From: Trichodesmium erythraeum IMS101
GTDB taxonomy: Bacteria; Cyanobacteriota; Cyanobacteriia; Cyanobacteriales; Microcoleaceae
DNA: 32,000 nucleotides
Direction of reading: 5' to 3'
Assembly (NCBI RefSeq): GCF_000014265.1
Contig: NC_008312.1
Location: 3,390,001 to 3,422,000 of the forward strand
Below are positions 1-31,593 of the stretch, one piece after another. Under the pieces are notes generated by a model. It ran no database searches, was not told the DNA's origin, and worked only from the letters and a program-made list of their open reading frames with translations. Both the position numbers and the translations under genes were made by a program. The first letter of the stretch is position 1. The number at the start of each line of letters is the position of its first letter.

Positions 1-1242
1 ATAGTCTGCACAGGTAGCGGTGTCACCCTAGCTAACGAATACAGACAATATGCCTCTGGCAGTGTCGTACATTCACTCATACTCAGCGATGAAGAATTGA
101 AAGTTGCTTATTCTGGTGCAATAGCTTTAGTTTATCCTTCTTTATACGAAGGTTTTGGAATGCCTGTTGCCGAAGCATTAGCTTGTGCTTGCCCGGTGAT
201 TACTTGTGCCAATGCTTCTATTCCTGAAGTTGTCGGGGAAGCTGCTATATATGTTGATGGCAATGACGTAGATGGTTTGACGGATGCCCTGTGTGAAGTG
301 CAAAAGCCAAAAGTGCGTAATTCTTTAATTGCTACTGGTTTAGAACAAGCGAAGAAATTCTCTTGGGGTAAAATGGCTGATATTATGAGTATTGCTTTAA
401 TGAAAGCAACTTTAGGGCATTTAAATCTCAGGGATATTAATTTAATTATTTTCCCAGACTGGACGCAACCAGAAGAAACAGTGGGATGGGAATTCCAAGA
501 GGTAATCAAAAATCTGGTGACTCATCCAGATAGAGCTAAGATGACTTTATTAATAGATAACAGCAATATTATTGCTGAAGATGCAGATTTAATTTTATCT
601 AGCGTGGCAATGAACTTGTTAATGGAGGAAGAATTAGAGGTAGATGAGGGACCAGAAATTGTTTTAGTTGGGGAGTTGAGTCAAGTGCAGTGGTCTGCTT
701 TAATACCTCAGTTACAAGGTAGGATTAAATTGGAACATGAGAATGGGGAAGCGATCGCTGTTGTTGATAAAGATCTCCCTGTTTATGAGATTCAAGGTAT
801 AGAGCGATCGCGATCTCTTAGGCTAGAAACTGGTAGATGGGAACTTTTTAAACTAAGCGAAATTAATTTTGTTATATTCCCAGACTGGTCCCAACCAGAA
901 GAAACAGTGGGATTGGAATTAAAAGAGGTAATCAAAAATCTGGTGACTCATCCAGATAGAGGTAAGATGACTTTATTAGTAGATAACAGCAATATTACTG
1001 CTGAAGATGCAGATTTAATTTTATCTAGCGTGGCAATGAACTTGTTAATGGAGGAAGAATTAGAGGTAGATGAGGGACCAGAAATTGTTTTAGTTGGGGA
1101 GTTGAGTCAAGTGCAGTGGTCTGCTTTAATACCTCAGTTGCAAGGTAGGATTAAATTGGAACATGAGAATGGGGAAGCGATCGCTTCTGCAAAAGCAAGT
1201 CATATTACTGCTCTAAGTCTGAATGATTTAGCTAATAGTTAA
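1..1242 (+). CDS. Glycosyltransferase (GT-B fold, family 4-like), 5'-truncated by the window edge, with two tandem C-terminal FPDW modules
   Basis: Frame 1 is open from nt 1, so the TTG at 97 picked by the ORF caller is probably internal. ALVYPSLYEGFGMPVAEALACACPVITCANASIPEVVGEAAIYVD matches the E-x7-E C-terminal Rossmann signature of GT4-type enzymes. It is followed by two near-identical ~103-aa modules starting (I/V)IFPDW(T/S)QPEE. Confidence 0.8.
   Translation: MVCTGSGVTLANEYRQYASGSVVHSLILSDEELKVAYSGAIALVYPSLYEGFGMPVAEALACACPVITCANASIPEVVGEAAIYVDGNDVDGLTDALCEVQKPKVRNSLIATGLEQAKKFSWGKMADIMSIALMKATLGHLNLRDINLIIFPDWTQPEETVGWEFQEVIKNLVTHPDRAKMTLLIDNSNIIAEDADLILSSVAMNLLMEEELEVDEGPEIVLVGELSQVQWSALIPQLQGRIKLEHENGEAIAVVDKDLPVYEIQGIERSRSLRLETGRWELFKLSEINFVIFPDWSQPEETVGLELKEVIKNLVTHPDRGKMTLLVDNSNITAEDADLILSSVAMNLLMEEELEVDEGPEIVLVGELSQVQWSALIPQLQGRIKLEHENGEAIASAKASHITALSLNDLANS
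451..759 (+). repeat. FPDW module copy 1 (309-bp coding repeat)
   Basis: Runs from ttcccagactgg to gaagcgatcgct. My manual alignment gives 9 mismatches to copy 2 over 309 nt. The copy ends on a HIP1 site (GCGATCGC, 751-758). Confidence 0.9.
877..1185 (+). repeat. FPDW module copy 2 (309-bp coding repeat)
   Basis: Same 309-bp unit, 426 bp downstream of copy 1 in the same ORF and the same frame. It ends on a HIP1 site. Confidence 0.9.
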
Positions 1243-1277
1243 AGTAAAAAAACTGAACAAAAGAGGAAATTTTAAGG

Positions 1278-2735
1278 ATGCCAATATTTGTTGATAACTT
1301 AAAGAAAAATAGAAAAATAGATGATATTCATTTAACCATAGCCATTGTAGGTTCTAGAAAGCTTGAACAGTTTGAAGAAGAATATATCAATCAAGGATGG
1401 GGTTTAATGTCCCCCAATCTGACCATATACGGTTTTGATGCTGATCAAGACGCGTGCAAGAAAATGAACACAAAGCTGCAAGAACAACAAATCAGCCATC
1501 AAGAAAAACACATACCCTTGGCTCTTTGGGATTCTGTAGAAACTGCTACTTTGCACATTACTAAATTCCCTGCTTGTAGTTCTTTGTACCCTCCAAGTCA
1601 GTCATATATTGATCGCTTTATTGGAAATTCCCCACTTATGGAATTAGCATCCACCCAAGAGATTCAAACAACAACTTTAGATGATTTTTGTCATTCTGAG
1701 GAAATCAGTGAAATTGATTTTATACAAATTGATACTCAAGGAGCAGAACTCAAAATTTTAGAAGGTGCTAAGGAAATTTTAAAAAGTGTTTTGTCACTAA
1801 ATGTAGAGGTAGAATTTACGAGTCTCTATGATAATCAACCTTTGTTTGGGGATGTTGACTTGTATCTGAGGAAAAAAGGCTTTACCCTATTTGATTTTGG
1901 AACTTTGTATCGAGATTCCCGTCGCAGAAGTTCCATATGTTCTCAAGAGCATCCCGGTCAATTAATATGGACAGATGCTTTTTACTTTCAGGATTTGATC
2001 CAAAAGTCATCCGCTCAGGAATCGTGTAATAAGACTCCAGAAAAGCTGTTAAAGTTAGCTTGTATTGCCGATATCCTAAAATTTCCTGACGTAGCAATGG
2101 AAGCCCTGGAGTGCTTAACTTGGAAGTATGGTGATAATCCTAAGTACAATTTTGCCAACAACATAGCAGAGGTTTTATCCCAATTCCACAATTTGGCTAA
2201 GGAGGGAGTGGGCGCTTTACCAGCGATGGAAAGAATCAAAGGTTATCTCAATAGTAAGTATTTTTTAAATCAGCCAGTGGTTAAAGAAGACGAGCTACAT
2301 TCAAGGTTAAAATTCAGACAATTTAATCTGATAATTTTCCCAGACTGGACGCAACCAGAAGAAACAGTGGGATTAGAATTACAAAAAGTAATTAAAAGTC
2401 TAGTGACTCATCCAGATAGAGCTAAGATGACTTTATTAATAGATAACAGCAATATTACTGCTGAAGATGCAGATTTAATTTTATCTAGCGTGGCAATGAA
2501 CTTGTTAATGGAGGAAGAATTAGAGGTAGATGAGGGACCAGAAATTGTTTTAGTTGGGGAGTTGAGTCAAGTGCAGTGGTCTGCTTTAATACCTCAGTTG
2601 CAAAGTAGGATTAAATTGGAACATGAGAATGGGGAAGCGATCGCTCAAATTAAAGCAGAAAATATTCCTATTATTGAACTCAATAACTTGGCAAGAAAAA
2701 GTTTTTGTATTCATAAAACCGTTGATTTCACCTGA
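1278..2735 (+). CDS. FkbM-family SAM-dependent methyltransferase with a C-terminal FPDW module
   Basis: 485-aa ORF with a GAGGA ribosome-binding site ~10 nt upstream of the ATG. IDFIQIDTQGAELKILEGAKEIL matches the FkbM (Methyltransf_21) core I recall (IDxxKIDxEGxExxVLxG). It lies 35 nt after the glycosyltransferase stop, so the two are probably co-transcribed. Confidence 0.85.
   Translation: MPIFVDNLKKNRKIDDIHLTIAIVGSRKLEQFEEEYINQGWGLMSPNLTIYGFDADQDACKKMNTKLQEQQISHQEKHIPLALWDSVETATLHITKFPACSSLYPPSQSYIDRFIGNSPLMELASTQEIQTTTLDDFCHSEEISEIDFIQIDTQGAELKILEGAKEILKSVLSLNVEVEFTSLYDNQPLFGDVDLYLRKKGFTLFDFGTLYRDSRRRSSICSQEHPGQLIWTDAFYFQDLIQKSSAQESCNKTPEKLLKLACIADILKFPDVAMEALECLTWKYGDNPKYNFANNIAEVLSQFHNLAKEGVGALPAMERIKGYLNSKYFLNQPVVKEDELHSRLKFRQFNLIIFPDWTQPEETVGLELQKVIKSLVTHPDRAKMTLLIDNSNITAEDADLILSSVAMNLLMEEELEVDEGPEIVLVGELSQVQWSALIPQLQSRIKLEHENGEAIAQIKAENIPIIELNNLARKSFCIHKTVDFT
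2337..2645 (+). repeat. FPDW module copy 3 (309-bp coding repeat, in the neighbouring gene)
   Basis: Same unit at the C-terminus of the FkbM methyltransferase ORF. The last 186 nt differ from copies 1 and 2 at only 1-2 positions; differences cluster in the first ~120 nt. It ends on a HIP1 site. Confidence 0.9.
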
Positions 2736-2797: not shown

Positions 2798-4133
2798 ATT
2801 AGTCCTGACCAACTTTTGTCTAAAAGATACTTCCTCTGTTAGCTGTTGTGTTAGTAAAACTATCTCTTCACTCAGATAACCATTAGAGGGTAAGGTACGA
2901 AACTAACAGGGGAAATACTTCCATACATTCATAGGCATCTCTAAACTAAGCAATTGTAAAACACCTAGAGCTAAGTGTTGATGAAAAACCGTTCCATTGC
3001 CTCTGCCTCAACTTTTCTCTGAAACTGTTGTTATTGTTTTTTCGGATATTGACTGAGAATTAAGTCTTTCGGCCACCCCTGAGTCCGAGTCATATCTTTC
3101 ATCCAAAACTGATAGCTAAAAACCGACAATAGTTGAATAAGTTCCGGAAAGTAACTTCAACCTTGAAACGCCAACTGTAAGCGGTTAAAATTTATGCTGC
3201 TGATCAAGTGACATCAGTTGAAAGCAGGATTATTTATTTCCCCGACCGCCACACAGCTAGTACAAAGCGAACTTTTTGAACAGAAGAGTCCTAATGCAAA
3301 TCTATACTGTGACTGTGGTATTTGAGCTTCACCATGTTGCCATAAAGTAGTAGAGTTTCTGTAGTAAAGCAGTCTTTCTCGTCAAACAAGTTCCGTAATT
3401 TGACTGATTCACCCCAGATGCGAGGCATGTCCCGACTGTATTTGAGTGGTGGTGGCAGTAAAGGATATTTATCTACTGCATTGATGCGTACTCTGGTAAT
3501 TAAGTGTATCTAATAATTCCTAAAATCTTCAATCAAGTGTTTAGAAGCATAATAAGCATCCAGAATGATATCGCTACCAGCATAGATAAGTTCGATACAC
3601 AAAGTAGACATTCACTCTACTATTATAGTTTCATCATCCTCAGCCATCTTGATACCATCTTGTAACCCCAAAGTCACAGGAACTGCTTTTAAACAAGAGC
3701 CTGTAACTGAAAGTAAGGCGAGAGCTCCAAAGTAATGACCTCGTATCCACTCTGGTTTGGTGACATTTTCTGATTCATTATGCAGTTTTTTCACCGCCGG
3801 CATTTTTCTTCCTTCCTTACCGACTTTAATACCATCACCTAGATAAACTAGTTGACCTCTGAGACGGTAGACTTTTGGGTGAGTGATTAACCACTTGTGC
3901 CACATGGTGGATAATTTTTAGACACTAATTCCCTTTGAATGAAATCAGTGTAAAGCTTGGGTGTAGTAATTTTGTGTTACTCCCACTGGGTTTACATAGC
4001 TGGTAACTGCCCGATGTTGGCTACATAAAAGAATGCCCCAAATCAGGATAACAAAACATTCATAAGTGGCATGAAGACTAAACACTGGACTTAAGTTGGT
4101 CAATATTTGCTCTAGACAACGTATTATGTGCAT
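2798..4133 (-). pseudogene. Degraded IS4-type DDE transposase gene (multiple stops and frameshifts)
   Basis: Minus-strand fragments read MHIIRCLEQILTNLSPVFSLHATYECFVILIWGILLC (4133-3945), MWHKWLITHPKVYRLRGQLVYLGDGIKVGKEGRKMPAVKKLHNESEN (3905-3612), then MSTLCIELIYAGSDIILDAYYASKHL and LLSTDVT..AYSWRFKVEVTFRNL. These are split over several frames by stops. The Y-x2-RW-x-VE motif is typical of IS4-type transposases. Element boundaries are uncertain. Confidence 0.65.
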
Positions 4134-12943: not shown

Positions 12944-14242
12944 TTAAAACTCCCACTCTAGGACACGACCTTGAATTTGTTTTCCTAACCAAGGTGTATT
13001 AAAAGAACGAGATTTCAAAGTTTGTTTTTCTACTACCCAAGTTTCTTGAGGAGCAAATAAAGTCACTTCTGCTGACTTTTGGGGTCTGATATCTCCAGGA
13101 ATTAATCCTAAACATTTGCTAGGAGACGTACTTAATAATCTCCATAACTCTAAAGCCGACATCTGTCCTGTGTTGACAAAACTCTGCCATAATAAAGGTA
13201 ATGCTATTTGTAGTCCTATTGCTCCTGTGGGTGCTTCAGAAAAAGCAACAGTTTTCTCTTCATAAGTATAAGGAGCATGGTCAATAGCAATAGCATCTAA
13301 AACCCCATCCCTAATACCTTCAAGTAAAGTTAAGCGATCGCTCTGACTTCCTAGAGGAGGTTCCAAACGTAAATTCGGGTCATAAGGAAAAAAATAATTA
13401 TCCAGAAGAGACTTACCCTCAATAGCCAGACTATCCAACAACAAATGCATCCAAGTCGTACTAGCAGTAATAGGCAAACCCCTACTTTTAGCATTTGCAA
13501 TTAACTCTACACTCCGAGCAGTAGAGACCCGCATAATATGAACCGGAGTACCAATAGCATCTACTAACTCTAAAACAGCAGCCAAAGCAGAAGTTTCAGC
13601 CATAGTCGAAACCCCAGGCAAACCCAAACGAATAGAATCATACCCCTCTCGCATCACCCCATTACCTGCTAACCCAGAATTTTTGCAAAATAAAGCAACA
13701 GATTTATTCAGAGGTTTCAAATATTCCAAAACTCGTCGTAACAAACCAAGATTTTCTAGAGCCAAACCATCAGCAAACCCTATAACACCTGATGCAGCTA
13801 ATTCCCCCAACTCAGTCATTTCCTTACCTTTTACACCCTGAGTAATAGCACCCCAATAATAAAAGAGAGGAAAAGTAGAATTATTATTTACCTGAGTTGC
13901 CAAATTTTGTAATCTTGCCAAACCAGACAAATTATCCACAGGAGGAAAAGTATCCGGCAAAATTGCTAACCTGGTAAAACCACCTGCCTTAGAAGCTTGC
14001 ATTAGAGATTCTATAGTTTCCCGTTCCTCAAACCCAGGTTCTCCGCTATGACAATATAAATCTACTAAACCAGGACCTAAAATTAATCCCTGACAGTCTT
14101 GAATATCTGTTTTAGTTGGAAACTCGGAAATATTTTCCTCAACTGTGGCTATTTTTCCATCAATAATTAAAACATCAGCAACTCTGTCTGTGTCGTAAAC
14201 AGGGTCTAATATTCGGACTTTTTGAAGTAATTTGCTATTCAT
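12944..14242 (-). CDS. Dihydroorotase-like protein with a degenerate metal-binding site (possible non-catalytic PyrC'-type paralog)
   Basis: The overall architecture is dihydroorotase-like (GLVDLYCHSGEPGFEERETIESL, PVHIMRVST, AIAIDHAPY). Canonical ligands are replaced: HxH becomes YCH, xHAE becomes LFCKN, HxSt becomes MRVST, DHAPH becomes DHAPY. Confidence 0.75.
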   Translation of the reverse strand: MNSKLLQKVRILDPVYDTDRVADVLIIDGKIATVEENISEFPTKTDIQDCQGLILGPGLVDLYCHSGEPGFEERETIESLMQASKAGGFTRLAILPDTFPPVDNLSGLARLQNLATQVNNNSTFPLFYYWGAITQGVKGKEMTELGELAASGVIGFADGLALENLGLLRRVLEYLKPLNKSVALFCKNSGLAGNGVMREGYDSIRLGLPGVSTMAETSALAAVLELVDAIGTPVHIMRVSTARSVELIANAKSRGLPITASTTWMHLLLDSLAIEGKSLLDNYFFPYDPNLRLEPPLGSQSDRLTLLEGIRDGVLDAIAIDHAPYTYEEKTVAFSEAPTGAIGLQIALPLLWQSFVNTGQMSALELWRLLSTSPSKCLGLIPGDIRPQKSAEVTLFAPQETWVVEKQTLKSRSFNTPWLGKQIQGRVLEWEF

Positions 14243-14492
14243 TTCTATAGAAGTCAGAAGAATGTAGGTTGGTTAGAACGATAGTGAAACCCAACAAAAC
14301 CTTGTTATGCTAATTTTGGGTTTCCATACCTCAACCAAACCTATACCTAATATTCGGATTTGTTGAAGTAGTTTGCTGTTTATTAATTATATACAAGTCA
14401 GAATAATGTAGAATGTAGATTAAGTAGAACGACAGTGAAACCCAATAAAACCTTGCTAATGTTGGGTTTCGATACCTCAACCCAACCTATAC
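14206..14492. repeat. Two-unit tandem duplication (141 + 146 bp), each unit holding the 5' end or a pseudo-5' end of the DHOase-like gene plus an ~85-bp palindromic MITE-like element
   Basis: Unit 1 is 14206-14346 and unit 2 is 14347-14492. Both begin ctaatattcgg and end acctatac, at roughly 80-85% identity by eye. Each holds an internal hairpin gaaacccaa..ttgggtttc. In unit 2 the position of the gene's ATG reads ATA. Confidence 0.8.
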
Positions 14493-14592: not shown

Positions 14593-14985
14593 TCAATCAA
14601 AGTAAAATTTTGATGTAGGAAAAAATCCATGATATTTTTTTCCATTGCGCTCTAATACTCCACCATCACCGCTGAACCTCAATTTTGTGGGATGATTAGG
14701 GTCTAAGTGTTGAAAATCTTGACCACAAGGACGCCATTTTTCTTTACTTCGGTCCCAGTAAAAACATTTTCTACTGGTAACTGGGACAAAACAGGTTGCC
14801 ATTTTTATTCCGGGATTAAAGAACCCTCCATAAGAACCAGAAATATCTGGCACTACGTGATAAAAAATGTCTGGCAACTCCTTAAAATAATCTACGTCGG
14901 TTCTAAAATCTTCTTCGCAACGATGAATTGTTTGAGCGCTAGCAGGTTTATATGTTATGAGATTAGGAACACTACTCCAAAGCAA
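14593..14985 (-). CDS. Small Cys-containing hypothetical protein, probably secreted; start codon unresolved
   Basis: 130-aa ORF from a TTG. The frame stays open upstream to 15072 and encodes a signal-peptide-like HKRKELYFSKATIFLCFFFFCLLWSSVPNLITYKPASA/QT, but that stretch has no ATG, GTG or TTG. Confidence 0.5.
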   Translation of the reverse strand: MLWSSVPNLITYKPASAQTIHRCEEDFRTDVDYFKELPDIFYHVVPDISGSYGGFFNPGIKMATCFVPVTSRKCFYWDRSKEKWRPCGQDFQHLDPNHPTKLRFSGDGGVLERNGKKYHGFFPTSKFYFD

Positions 14986-23124: not shown

Positions 23125-23337
23125 AAAGATGATTTATAAGTAGCTGCTAATGTCTAATGGAAGTTTTTAATCATTTATTACCTATATAAAAAAATAGTAT
23201 GACAATTAATTTAACTAAAAAAATTTTTTTTTAAAGATAATTTATAAGTATCTGCTAATGTCTAATGGAAGTTTTTAATCATTTATTACCCATATAAAAA
23301 AATAGTATGACAATTAATTTAACTAAAAAAATTTTTT
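23125..23337. repeat. Two-copy tandem direct repeat, period 108 bp
   Basis: Copy 1 is 23125-23232 and copy 2 is 23233-23337. My alignment finds 3 mismatches (G/A, G/T, T/C). The repeat lies in an ORF-free, very AT-rich region. Confidence 0.9.
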
Positions 23338-31089: not shown

Positions 31090-31593
31090 ATGTCAGGAGT
31101 AGTAAAAATTGAGATAAATGAATCGGTAGAAACTCTCAAAAAACTTTTAAAAAGTGCGAGTACAGCTCAAGAAAAGGAAAGACTTCAAACTATTTACTGG
31201 TTGAAAACTCAAACAGTAGAAACAGTAAAAGAAATTGCGATAATGTTAGGACGCAATCGAGTCACAGTACAAAAATGGTTAGGGAAATATCGTACAGGTG
31301 GACTGAATCTTTTACTAGAACCAAAGAAAAATCTAGGAGGGAGGCCAAGTTCAATTCCACCAAATGTAATCGAGAAATTAGAAGCAGAATTGCAAAACCC
31401 GGAAGGTTTCCAAAGCTATGGTGAAATTCAACAGTGGTTAACGACTTGTTTTGACATCGAGCTGTCTTATCGAACAGTTCATCAATTAGTCAGATATAAA
31501 TTAAAAAGTAAATTAAAAGTTCCACGTCCAAATCACATAAAACAAAATAAAGAAGCTCAAGAAAACTTTAAAAAAAACTCTCATCTCAACTAG
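31090..31593 (+). CDS. IS630 transposase orfA (DNA-binding part)
   Basis: 167 aa. ERLQTIYWLKTQTVETVKEIAIMLGRNRVTVQKWLGKYRTGGLNLL is a helix-turn-helix typical of IS630/Tc1-like transposases. Confidence 0.8.
   Translation: MSGVVKIEINESVETLKKLLKSASTAQEKERLQTIYWLKTQTVETVKEIAIMLGRNRVTVQKWLGKYRTGGLNLLLEPKKNLGGRPSSIPPNVIEKLEAELQNPEGFQSYGEIQQWLTTCFDIELSYRTVHQLVRYKLKSKLKVPRPNHIKQNKEAQENFKKNSHLN
31567..31578 (+). promoter_or_regulatory. Candidate programmed -1 ribosomal frameshift site (TTT AAA AAA AAC)
   Basis: An A8 run (31570-31577) lies 5 codons before the orfA stop. The -1 frame opens at 31572 just after a TAA and continues into the DDE domain. Confidence 0.55.

Follow-up and report, generated by a model that had tools for sequence, protein, structure and literature searches.

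A conserved, unannotated accessory domain on glycan-pathway enzymes of filamentous cyanobacteria, with evidence of gene conversion among its copies in Trichodesmium erythraeum

We analyzed a 32,000-nucleotide stretch of the Trichodesmium erythraeum IMS101 genome (contig NC_008312.1, positions 3,390,001 to 3,422,000; here called the window), which contains only the right end of a glycan gene cluster. At this end, a 309-bp repeat occurs three times across two adjacent genes, one encoding a GT4 glycosyltransferase (GT) and the other an FkbM-family methyltransferase (MT). The repeat encodes most of a conserved domain of ~120 residues and noncatalytic appearance, which we refer to as the module. 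Our analysis shows the module to be an accessory domain that is conserved, folds independently, and stands at the end of each enzyme unit of a glycan pathway; it belongs to a widespread cyanobacterial family that no database annotates. Comparison with orthologous loci supports a slow homogenization, with short conversion tracts recurring and maintaining the similarity of the copies. The pathway served by the module-bearing enzymes is probably that of a pilin O-glycan or a related surface glycan.

A repeat search of the window returned one direct-repeat family with three copies (421-720, 847-1146, and 2307-2606). In a MAFFT alignment, the similarity was unbroken from approximately 421, 847, and 2307 to 759, 1185, and 2645, respectively, and the sequences were unrelated beyond those limits. 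The cores, designated A (451-759), B (877-1185), and C (2337-2645), are 309 nt each and all begin at the FPDW codons. A and B differ at 9 positions (97.1% identity), A and C at 11 (96.4%), and B and C at 12 (96.1%). Within the final 186 nt, variation is confined to core positions 264 and 268, leaving 1 or 2 differences per pair, and synonymous sites are near-identical (synonymous divergence [dS], 0 to 0.027). Three 309-nt copies at 96 to 97% identity cannot have arisen by chance. A preliminary description of the window, made from its letters, had reported three near-identical copies on two neighboring glycan genes whose catalytic parts are unrelated, and both statements were confirmed; one gene is of the GT4 type and the other of the FkbM type, and the sequences upstream of the repeats share nothing. 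That description also located the repeat cores correctly, but the domain itself starts ~10 codons earlier than proposed, since its first beta-strand (INLIIF) precedes FPDW. Between A (451-573) and B (877-999), the 5' 123 nt of the core carry 7 nonsynonymous changes and 1 synonymous change, numbers too small for a test. All of these changes are located in the loop between strand 1 and helix 1, in helix 1, or around strand 2, and they could represent specificity-determining positions.

The first gene is the tail of a larger gene truncated by the window edge. It encodes the C-terminal half of a GT4 domain (~106-300; PF00534/PF13692 match amino acids [aa] 4 to 68 of the open reading frame [ORF] starting at 97), followed by two tandem modules. 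In the second gene, the FkbM domain (~1494-1886) is followed by a ~150-aa region without a Pfam match and then by a C-terminal module.

Profile searches revealed no family for the module at an E value of ≤1 among the 24,736 models of Pfam-A or the 18,950 models of NCBIfam. A search of the PDB, using a profile built from 26 homologues, returned no chains at an E value of ≤10. None of the top Pfam families of 55 module-bearing proteins covers the module, and no description of the domain was found in the literature searched. The preliminary description, which could not assign the module to a named family, was therefore right on this point. The module signature begins with L-x-L-R-x-INLIIFPDW-x-QPEE ... 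THPD ... (M/I)TLL(I/V)DxSN..ED(A/E) and continues with LSSVAMNLLMEE ... EI.L.G.LS..QW..L ... RI.LE.EN. The conserved motifs FPDW, LSSVAMNLLMEE, and QW are unique to the module.

The structure of a single module was modeled with AlphaFold2 from an alignment of homologues (mean predicted local distance difference test score [pLDDT], 86.7; predicted template modeling score [pTM], 0.80). The model contains a strand at residues 6 to 10, a helix at 18 to 33, a strand at 41 to 46, a helix at 52 to 70, and a strand at 79 to 83, followed by a helix at 88 to 97, short strand residues near 100 to 107, and a helix at 109 to 115. The predicted fold is a small Rossmann-like alpha/beta sandwich of the order beta-alpha-beta-alpha-beta-alpha. 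The invariant FPDW, DxSN, and QW residues are all located in the loops after strands 1, 2, and 3. A Foldseek search of the PDB with the single module gave no match at an E value of ≤1e-3, and TM-scores normalized to the targets were 0.14 to 0.34. The best match was Asp1 (5vaf_C; E = 1.8e-3; TM-score normalized to the query [TMq], 0.62; normalized to the target [TMt], 0.17; 9% identity). Further weak matches were the C domain of glycogen synthase (2bfw, also as a fusion partner in G protein-coupled receptor constructs), OtsA, LpxB, and HisD; TMq was 0.41 to 0.50 for PGS, OtsA, and LpxB. These weak neighbors are mostly single halves of two-lobed Rossmann-type glycosyltransferase folds, together with generic Rossmann-like domains. 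Since the matches of both the single module and the tandem pair were weak and generically Rossmann-like, assignment to a superfamily by Foldseek was dropped.

It had been suggested in the preliminary description that the module resembles the nucleotide-binding half of a GT-A glycosyltransferase. More broadly, the module might be a degenerate or truncated catalytic GT half (the GT-A nucleotide-binding half or a lone GT-B-type lobe) with residual activity or donor binding. The pattern hhhhFPDW ... hLLhDxSN...EDAD loosely recalls the VSIIIPTYN ... IIVVDDGS..D of GT2 enzymes and has a similar periodicity, and glycosyltransferases are found among the structural neighbors. However, when the module profile was aligned by hhalign with the GT2 domains of the same giant enzymes, the probability was 0.2% (E = 0.27), and GT-A homology was rejected. 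The GT2 models PF00535, PF13641, and PF10111 match other regions of module-bearing proteins but never the module itself, on which no GT model of Pfam scored at an E value of ≤1. No GT-A structure was recognized among the 50 best Foldseek matches against the PDB. No DxD metal/donor motif follows the fourth strand (the residues beyond the last strand are RIKLEHENGEA), and the sole D-x-D of the module (EDAD), which opens helix 2, is not invariant. A module of 120 residues and three to four strands could not accommodate a complete donor site, and the low target-normalized TM-scores also speak against a glycosyltransferase half. The likeness to GT-A therefore did not hold, and a catalytic remnant of any kind is very unlikely.

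The distribution of the module was assessed by a profile search that was exhaustive over 1.84 billion representative proteins. The module was found in 551 representative proteins at an E value of ≤1e-3, nearly all of them of filamentous cyanobacterial origin, in 471 at ≤1e-10, and in 256 at ≤1e-30. A scan of one genome per species yielded 141 genomic matches, almost all of them in filamentous cyanobacteria. Two contigs from metagenome-assembled genomes (MAGs) labeled Bacteroidota are 63% similar to the query, compared with 58 to 68% for Microcoleus loci, and may be misbinned. For locus analysis, 74 related loci were retrieved (given here as L001 and so on), nearly all from filamentous cyanobacteria of the genera Microcoleus, Okeania, Trichodesmium, Dapis, Tychonema, Arthrospira, Coleofasciculus, Lyngbya, Roseofilum, Nostoc, and Amazonocrinis.

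In keeping with the fusion to unrelated catalytic domains noted in the window, the partners among 55 diverse representatives were GT1/GT4 (28), GT2 (17), GT41 (10), class I MT (9), FkbM (5), and tetratricopeptide repeat (TPR) domains (6). The last module ends within 40 aa of the C terminus in 112 of 126 long representatives, and in many loci, neighboring genes each end in a module. At least two modules are present in 19 of 147 proteins, either in tandem or in the order enzyme-module-enzyme-module; in giant fused proteins, the module sits between catalytic units. A linker motif, L(E/K)xGxWEL(F/W)KL, precedes the second module in proteins P0199, P0200, P0201, P0013, and P0247 as well as in the window (817-855).

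The preliminary description had also raised the possibility of very recent module shuffling. This was not supported, because the layout of the window is also found in Okeania and Dapis, which argues for an old architecture, and the enzyme-plus-module layout is conserved across Oscillatoriales and Nostocales. The orthologues of the first gene in Okeania and Dapis encode 1,817 to 2,301 aa in the order MT, GT2, GT4, module, module, with the GT2 domain matched in L004 only. In these genera, the giant gene is followed by an FkbM-plus-module gene and then, in L004 and L008, by a gene for a ~550-aa protein that also ends in a module. In L003, a single protein comprises MT-GT4-module-module-GT41, and in L004, the GT41 is a separate ORF.

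Evidence for gene conversion came from the FkbM gene, which has orthologues in L001, L003, L004, L005, L008, and L015. The gene was split into 356 upstream codons and 107 module codons. Between near-identical strains, the module proved to be the more diverged part. The window and L001 (Trichodesmium MAG_R03) are 99.3% identical upstream (dS, 0.014) and 97.5% identical in the module (dS, 0.056); L005 and L003 are 99.8% identical upstream (dS, 0.006) and 94.7% identical in the module (dS, 0.139); and for L004 and L008, the values are 100% and 98.1%.

L001 is gapless and colinear with the window from 1066 to ~2700. The two differ at no position in 1066-1907, at 8 in 1908-2305, at none in 2306-2457, and at 8 in 2458-2604. 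This clustering is significant (8 differences in 147 nt versus 8 in 1,392 nt; Fisher test, p = 3.8e-5). At positions 2540, 2553, 2571, 2573, and 2591, the three window copies have one base in common and the FkbM module of L001 has another, and at 2571, 2573, and 2591, the L001 base is that of the aligned Okeania and Dapis modules. The last 120 nt of copy B in L001 are identical to copy B of the window, with the window-type bases already present. Copy C agrees with copy B at all variable sites from module nt 152 to 294 and with L001 upstream of the tract. The simplest history of these sequences is that, in the window lineage, a tract of 143 to 164 nt in the FkbM module (2440/2458 to 2600/2603) was overwritten from copy B. 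This replacement of ~150 nt by the second module of the GT4 gene accounts for the near identity of the 3' 186 nt in all three copies. The difference at 2604 (Gly to Ser) is private to copy C and is also present in a related Trichodesmium MAG protein (P0003).

Similar patches were observed in two other strain pairs, with 6 sites clustered in module nt 291 to 330 (L004/L008) and 17 in nt 79 to 255 (L005/L003); the alternative bases are present in paralogues. Together with the polarized tract in the window lineage, these patches bear out the earlier proposal of ongoing gene conversion. Paralogues are 84 to 94% identical within the Trichodesmium/Okeania/Dapis clade and 79 to 84% identical within the UBA2566/Roseofilum clade, compared with 66 to 72% nucleotide identity for orthologues between the two clades; over longer times, therefore, paralogues of one clade are the closer relatives. 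A paralogue from the same locus is the nearest neighbor of only 5 of 79 modules, so that orthology dominates over short times, and strict concerted evolution, in which the paralogue would always be nearest, was rejected.

Two further observations were made in these comparisons. All 8 upstream differences between the window and L001 are located in the 398-nt stretch from 1908 to 2305, between the FkbM domain and the module, and the preceding 842 nt are identical; this stretch may be a second recombination patch. In addition, the 354 FkbM codons that precede the module are 100% identical between Dapis sp. BLCC M229 (L004, 8742-10157) and Okeania hirsuta PAB10Feb10-1 (L008, 1948-3363), each listed as representing its species. 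Such identity points to a recent transfer of the cluster or to inconsistent names.

The near identity of the copies might alternatively reflect nothing more than very recent duplication or strong purifying selection, with no continuing conversion. The short-term dominance of orthology (5 of 79 modules) speaks for such an account, as does the strong conservation of the protein across the family. However, the three-module layout is present in Okeania and Dapis too, so the duplication predates these genera, and selection on the protein is at odds with near-identical synonymous sites in the 3' 186 nt. Nor does this account fit the bases of the FkbM tract, which are common to the GT4 modules of the window and differ from those of a 99.3%-identical orthologue, or the recurrence of clustered patches in two other strain pairs. 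The orthologue comparison largely refutes a history without conversion, which we consider highly improbable.

We also weighed the possibility that the three copies are an assembly artifact produced by collapse or duplication of a repeat. Breaks and collapses do occur at this site in metagenome assemblies: L001 begins within copy B (1-120), in L075 (Trichodesmium ALOHA_ZT_67) the 5' half of copy A runs directly into the 3' half of copy C, and many database matches are partial proteins at contig ends. In the window, by contrast, the copies differ at 9 to 12 sites, have unique flanks, and lie in continuous reading frames. L001 independently confirms the order copy B, intergenic region, FkbM, copy C, and the same architecture is present in Okeania and Dapis isolates and MAGs. 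An artifact is accordingly most unlikely. The breaks at the repeat (L001, L075, and the many partial proteins) imply that clusters of this kind are systematically fragmented in MAGs. The chimera in L075 (1-543; JAKVCZ010000059.1) starts inside the repeat and consists of the GT4 end with the 5' half of module A, continued by the 3' half of module C with the FkbM tail; the genes downstream are those of the window. The chimera may stem from collapse of the repeat during assembly or, with lower likelihood, from a true recombination deletion between A and C.

The neighbors of module genes in the related loci are chiefly genes for GT41 enzymes, class I methyltransferases, TPR proteins, and type IV pilin-like proteins. 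Of the 74 loci, 39 have a pilin gene at a distance of up to 6 kb, as found by iterative searches of every locus ORF. The prepilin motif GFTLIE (GFTLIELLVV) is present in 37 of these 39 loci, and all 39 have a GT41 ORF on the same strand no more than 700 nt away. In a recurrent map, the module genes occupy one strand and converge on an operon on the opposite strand, in which GT41/TPR lies nearest to them, followed by the pilin gene and then by a class I MT gene (the pilA-ogt arrangement). This arrangement was seen in Okeania (L012, L074), UBA2566 (L015), Roseofilum (L017), Coleofasciculus (L036), and many Microcoleus loci. In many cyanobacteria, ogt, which encodes a TPR-plus-GT41 protein, adjoins pilA and is needed for glycosylation of PilA with N-acetylglucosamine (GlcNAc); Ogt is thought to act in the cytoplasm, since it lacks a secretion signal (PMC12288463; PMC9306852). 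These reports and the adjacency of the loci make the module-bearing enzymes good candidates for building or decorating a pilin glycan or a linked surface glycan.

Two other features of these loci were considered. A conserved protein of 184 to 192 aa (MAKTVELN.YGVWQSGY...) is encoded next to the GT41 gene in Okeania and Trichodesmium loci (L009, 11035-11610, minus strand; L018, 4812-5363, minus strand); it is not a pilin, as it is without the prepilin motif. The filamentous distribution and the pilin neighbors also led us to consider filing the enzymes as hormogonium-polysaccharide (hps) glycosyltransferases, which was rejected on weak NCBIfam scores. The HpsE/N/O/P models match few members (best E values, 1e-19 to 1e-28), and the window gene scored 26.7 and 24.5 bits against Hps models, whose cutoffs are 550 to 575 bits.

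As to function, we tentatively favor the interpretation that the module is a common tethering or docking domain for the enzymes of one glycan pathway. The module would recognize one common partner and thereby bring successive enzymes together on the same acceptor. The partner might be a second module, a scaffold (for example, the TPR arm of the GT41 enzyme), or the acceptor. As in known docking domains, the module is small and noncatalytic and is carried by several enzymes of one pathway, either terminally or between units. Species differ in whether the units are fused or separate, and a module lies at each junction, which is a classical hint that the separate proteins interact. If every copy has to match one partner, conversion that maintains their similarity would be tolerated or favored. 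A more specific version, which we regard as rather doubtful, is that the module is a cytoplasmic, dockerin-like address tag on each enzyme unit of pilin or surface-glycan tailoring in filamentous cyanobacteria. In this version, an assembly line would form through binding of the tags to one another or to a shared TPR/GT41 scaffold, and conversion would keep the tags of one genome compatible while the system diversifies between lineages.

The chief competing explanation is that the module is a ligand- or acceptor-binding domain that holds the enzyme on its substrate (a growing glycan, a glycosylated pilin, a nucleotide sugar, or a lipid carrier), with tandem copies adding avidity. In its favor, two Trp residues and Phe, Asp, Glu, Asn, and Gln are invariant or near-invariant in the loops after strands 1 to 3, at the C-terminal edge of the sheet, and such a combination of aromatic and acidic or amide residues is typical of sugar-binding sites. 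Weak structural neighbors such as Asp1 (5vaf; TMq, 0.62), 2bfw, OtsA, and LpxB bind sugars or nucleotides, and all fusion partners act on glycans. Against it, the module has no glycine-rich or other recognizable nucleotide-binding motif; it shows no sequence similarity to solved ligand-binding domains in the PDB profile search, and all of its Foldseek matches have E values above 1e-3. Known glycan-binding modules of polysaccharide machineries, moreover, are beta-sandwiches. On balance, a ligand-binding role is possible but somewhat unlikely.

Several observations weigh against a docking domain kept uniform by conversion in a pilin-glycan pathway. The most conserved residues (FPDW, DxSN..ED, and the adjacent QW) are located at the classical ligand site of alpha/beta folds, and binding of a small ligand or sugar fits them equally well. 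In the AlphaFold2 model of the tandem pair (pLDDT, 85.7; pTM, 0.62), the linker has a pLDDT of only 55 to 58, and packing of one module on the other was neither shown nor excluded; Foldseek matches of the pair were two-lobed Rossmann proteins with TM-scores of 0.25 to 0.33. Neither a pilin gene nor a GT41 gene was found in the window itself, and in the closest loci of identical gene order (L003 to L005 and L008), GT41 is present but a pilin gene is absent from the surrounding 6 kb. For this cluster, the connection with pilin glycosylation is therefore drawn from the family at large. Across genera, dS is lower in the module (0.18 to 0.34) than in the catalytic part (0.44 to 0.57), which is not expected from unbiased conversion; there may be exchange between species. 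Lastly, L001 is metagenome assembled and starts inside the repeat, and misrecruited reads could give rise to a false conversion patch.

In filamentous cyanobacteria that form blooms and mats (e.g., Trichodesmium, Microcoleus, Okeania, and Planktothrix), motility and biofilm formation are governed by surface and pilin glycans, as is, probably, resistance to phages and grazers; of the enzymes that build these glycans, none but Ogt is known to have been characterized. One unannotated domain on hundreds of enzymes provides a simple genomic handle for finding the pathway. It also offers a concrete hypothesis for the coordination of many separate glycosyltransferases and methyltransferases, and it is a candidate portable interaction tag. 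If the address-tag version is correct, the tag would be a previously unrecognized, portable organizing principle of bacterial protein glycosylation machinery. The domain family is sizeable and unannotated, its pathway association is clear, and its evolutionary mode is of interest, but the fold is common and the function is inferred.

The coordinates of the features in the window are listed in Table 1.

Table 1. Features of the module-bearing genes at the left end of the window
Feature	Position	Strand	Basis or remark
3' end of multidomain glycosyltransferase gene	1-1242	+	Frame open from base 1, stop at 1240-1242; translation
Module copy A, domain envelope	421-771	+	hmmsearch envelope aa 141-257 of frame-1 translation; high-identity nt core 437-759
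Intermodule linker motif LRLETGRWELFKL	817-855	+	Conserved; predicted beta-hairpin, low confidence
Module copy B	850-1203 (core 877-1185)	+	hmmsearch envelope aa 284-401; putative donor of conversion tract
FkbM-family methyltransferase gene	1278-2735	+	PF05050, E = 2.3e-18 over aa 73-203; TIGR01444
Module copy C	2307-2666 (core 2337-2645)	+	hmmsearch envelope aa 351-470 of stop-to-stop frame
Gene-conversion tract inside copy C	2458-2600	+	Minimum 2540-2591; outer bounds 2440 and 2603
HIP1 octamer GCGATCGC, 3' end of high-identity core	751-758; likewise 1177-1184, 2637-2644	.	Sequence search

The HIP1 palindrome GCGATCGC occurs at 18 sites in the window, compared with 0.03 expected. Three of these are at the 3' ends of the module cores and 15 are elsewhere; the abundance of HIP1 is a genome-wide feature that is unspecific to the module. 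An exact-sequence look-up of the window FkbM protein, by which the left flank of the cluster was sought, returned no record. Just past the glycan genes, two small ORFs on the minus strand (3612-3905 and 3945-4133) had no Pfam match, and ORFs in 3612-4133 were for this reason not labeled transposase remnants. Housekeeping genes follow downstream in the window, encoding an FAD monooxygenase, a methyltransferase, amidohydrolases, a signal peptidase, and shikimate dehydrogenase. A 49-nt direct repeat (14259-14307 and 14410-14458; 86% identity, 151 nt apart) sits between the minus-strand ORFs 12944-14242 and 14593-14985. Two tandem copies of an AT-rich 108-nt unit (97% identical) were found at 23125-23337, where no ORF of at least 100 aa is listed, and a 167-aa ORF at 31090-31593 has HTH_32/HTH_23/HTH_33 domains.

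Several known systems invite comparison with the module. In its predicted three-layer alpha/beta sandwich (beta-alpha-beta-alpha-beta-alpha), it resembles the lobes of two-lobed glycosyltransferase-type proteins (Asp1 5vaf, 2bfw, OtsA, and LpxB) and the tandem universal stress proteins (Rv2623, 3cis). It is much smaller than a full GT lobe, however, and has no sequence similarity to these proteins and no Foldseek match at an E value of ≤1e-3.

The dockerins of cellulosomes are closer in their logic. They, too, are small, noncatalytic, and usually C-terminal modules, found on enzymes whose catalytic domains are unrelated but work on one polymer; within a genome, the copies closely resemble one another, and the principle is that of one shared address tag. 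Dockerins are extracellular, calcium-binding duplicated-loop modules of ~70 residues whose cohesin partner is known. The module is cytoplasmic, ~120 residues long, and Rossmann-like, its role as a tag is putative, and it has no sequence or fold relation to dockerins.

In ABC-transporter-dependent O-antigen assembly (Klebsiella O4/O7 and the WbdA/WbdD system of Escherichia coli O9a), glycosyltransferases and methyltransferases form multiprotein complexes, and, as in the cyanobacterial loci, GT and MT modules are variably split between single- and multimodule proteins (PMC11231755). The O-antigen systems differ in that their terminator has a coiled-coil ruler and their enzymes do not all carry one shared globular domain. 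The cyanobacterial loci that were examined showed no ABC transporter; their conserved neighbors are GT41 and pilin genes instead.

The pilA-ogt pair provides the most direct comparison at the level of the locus (PMC9306852; PMC12288463). In Synechococcus elongatus, where Ogt has been characterized, a single enzyme adds GlcNAc, and the window shows no pilA or ogt. In the wider family, however, a TPR-plus-GT41/pilin pair stands beside module genes in 39 of 74 loci, and some of the GT41 enzymes are themselves fused to modules.

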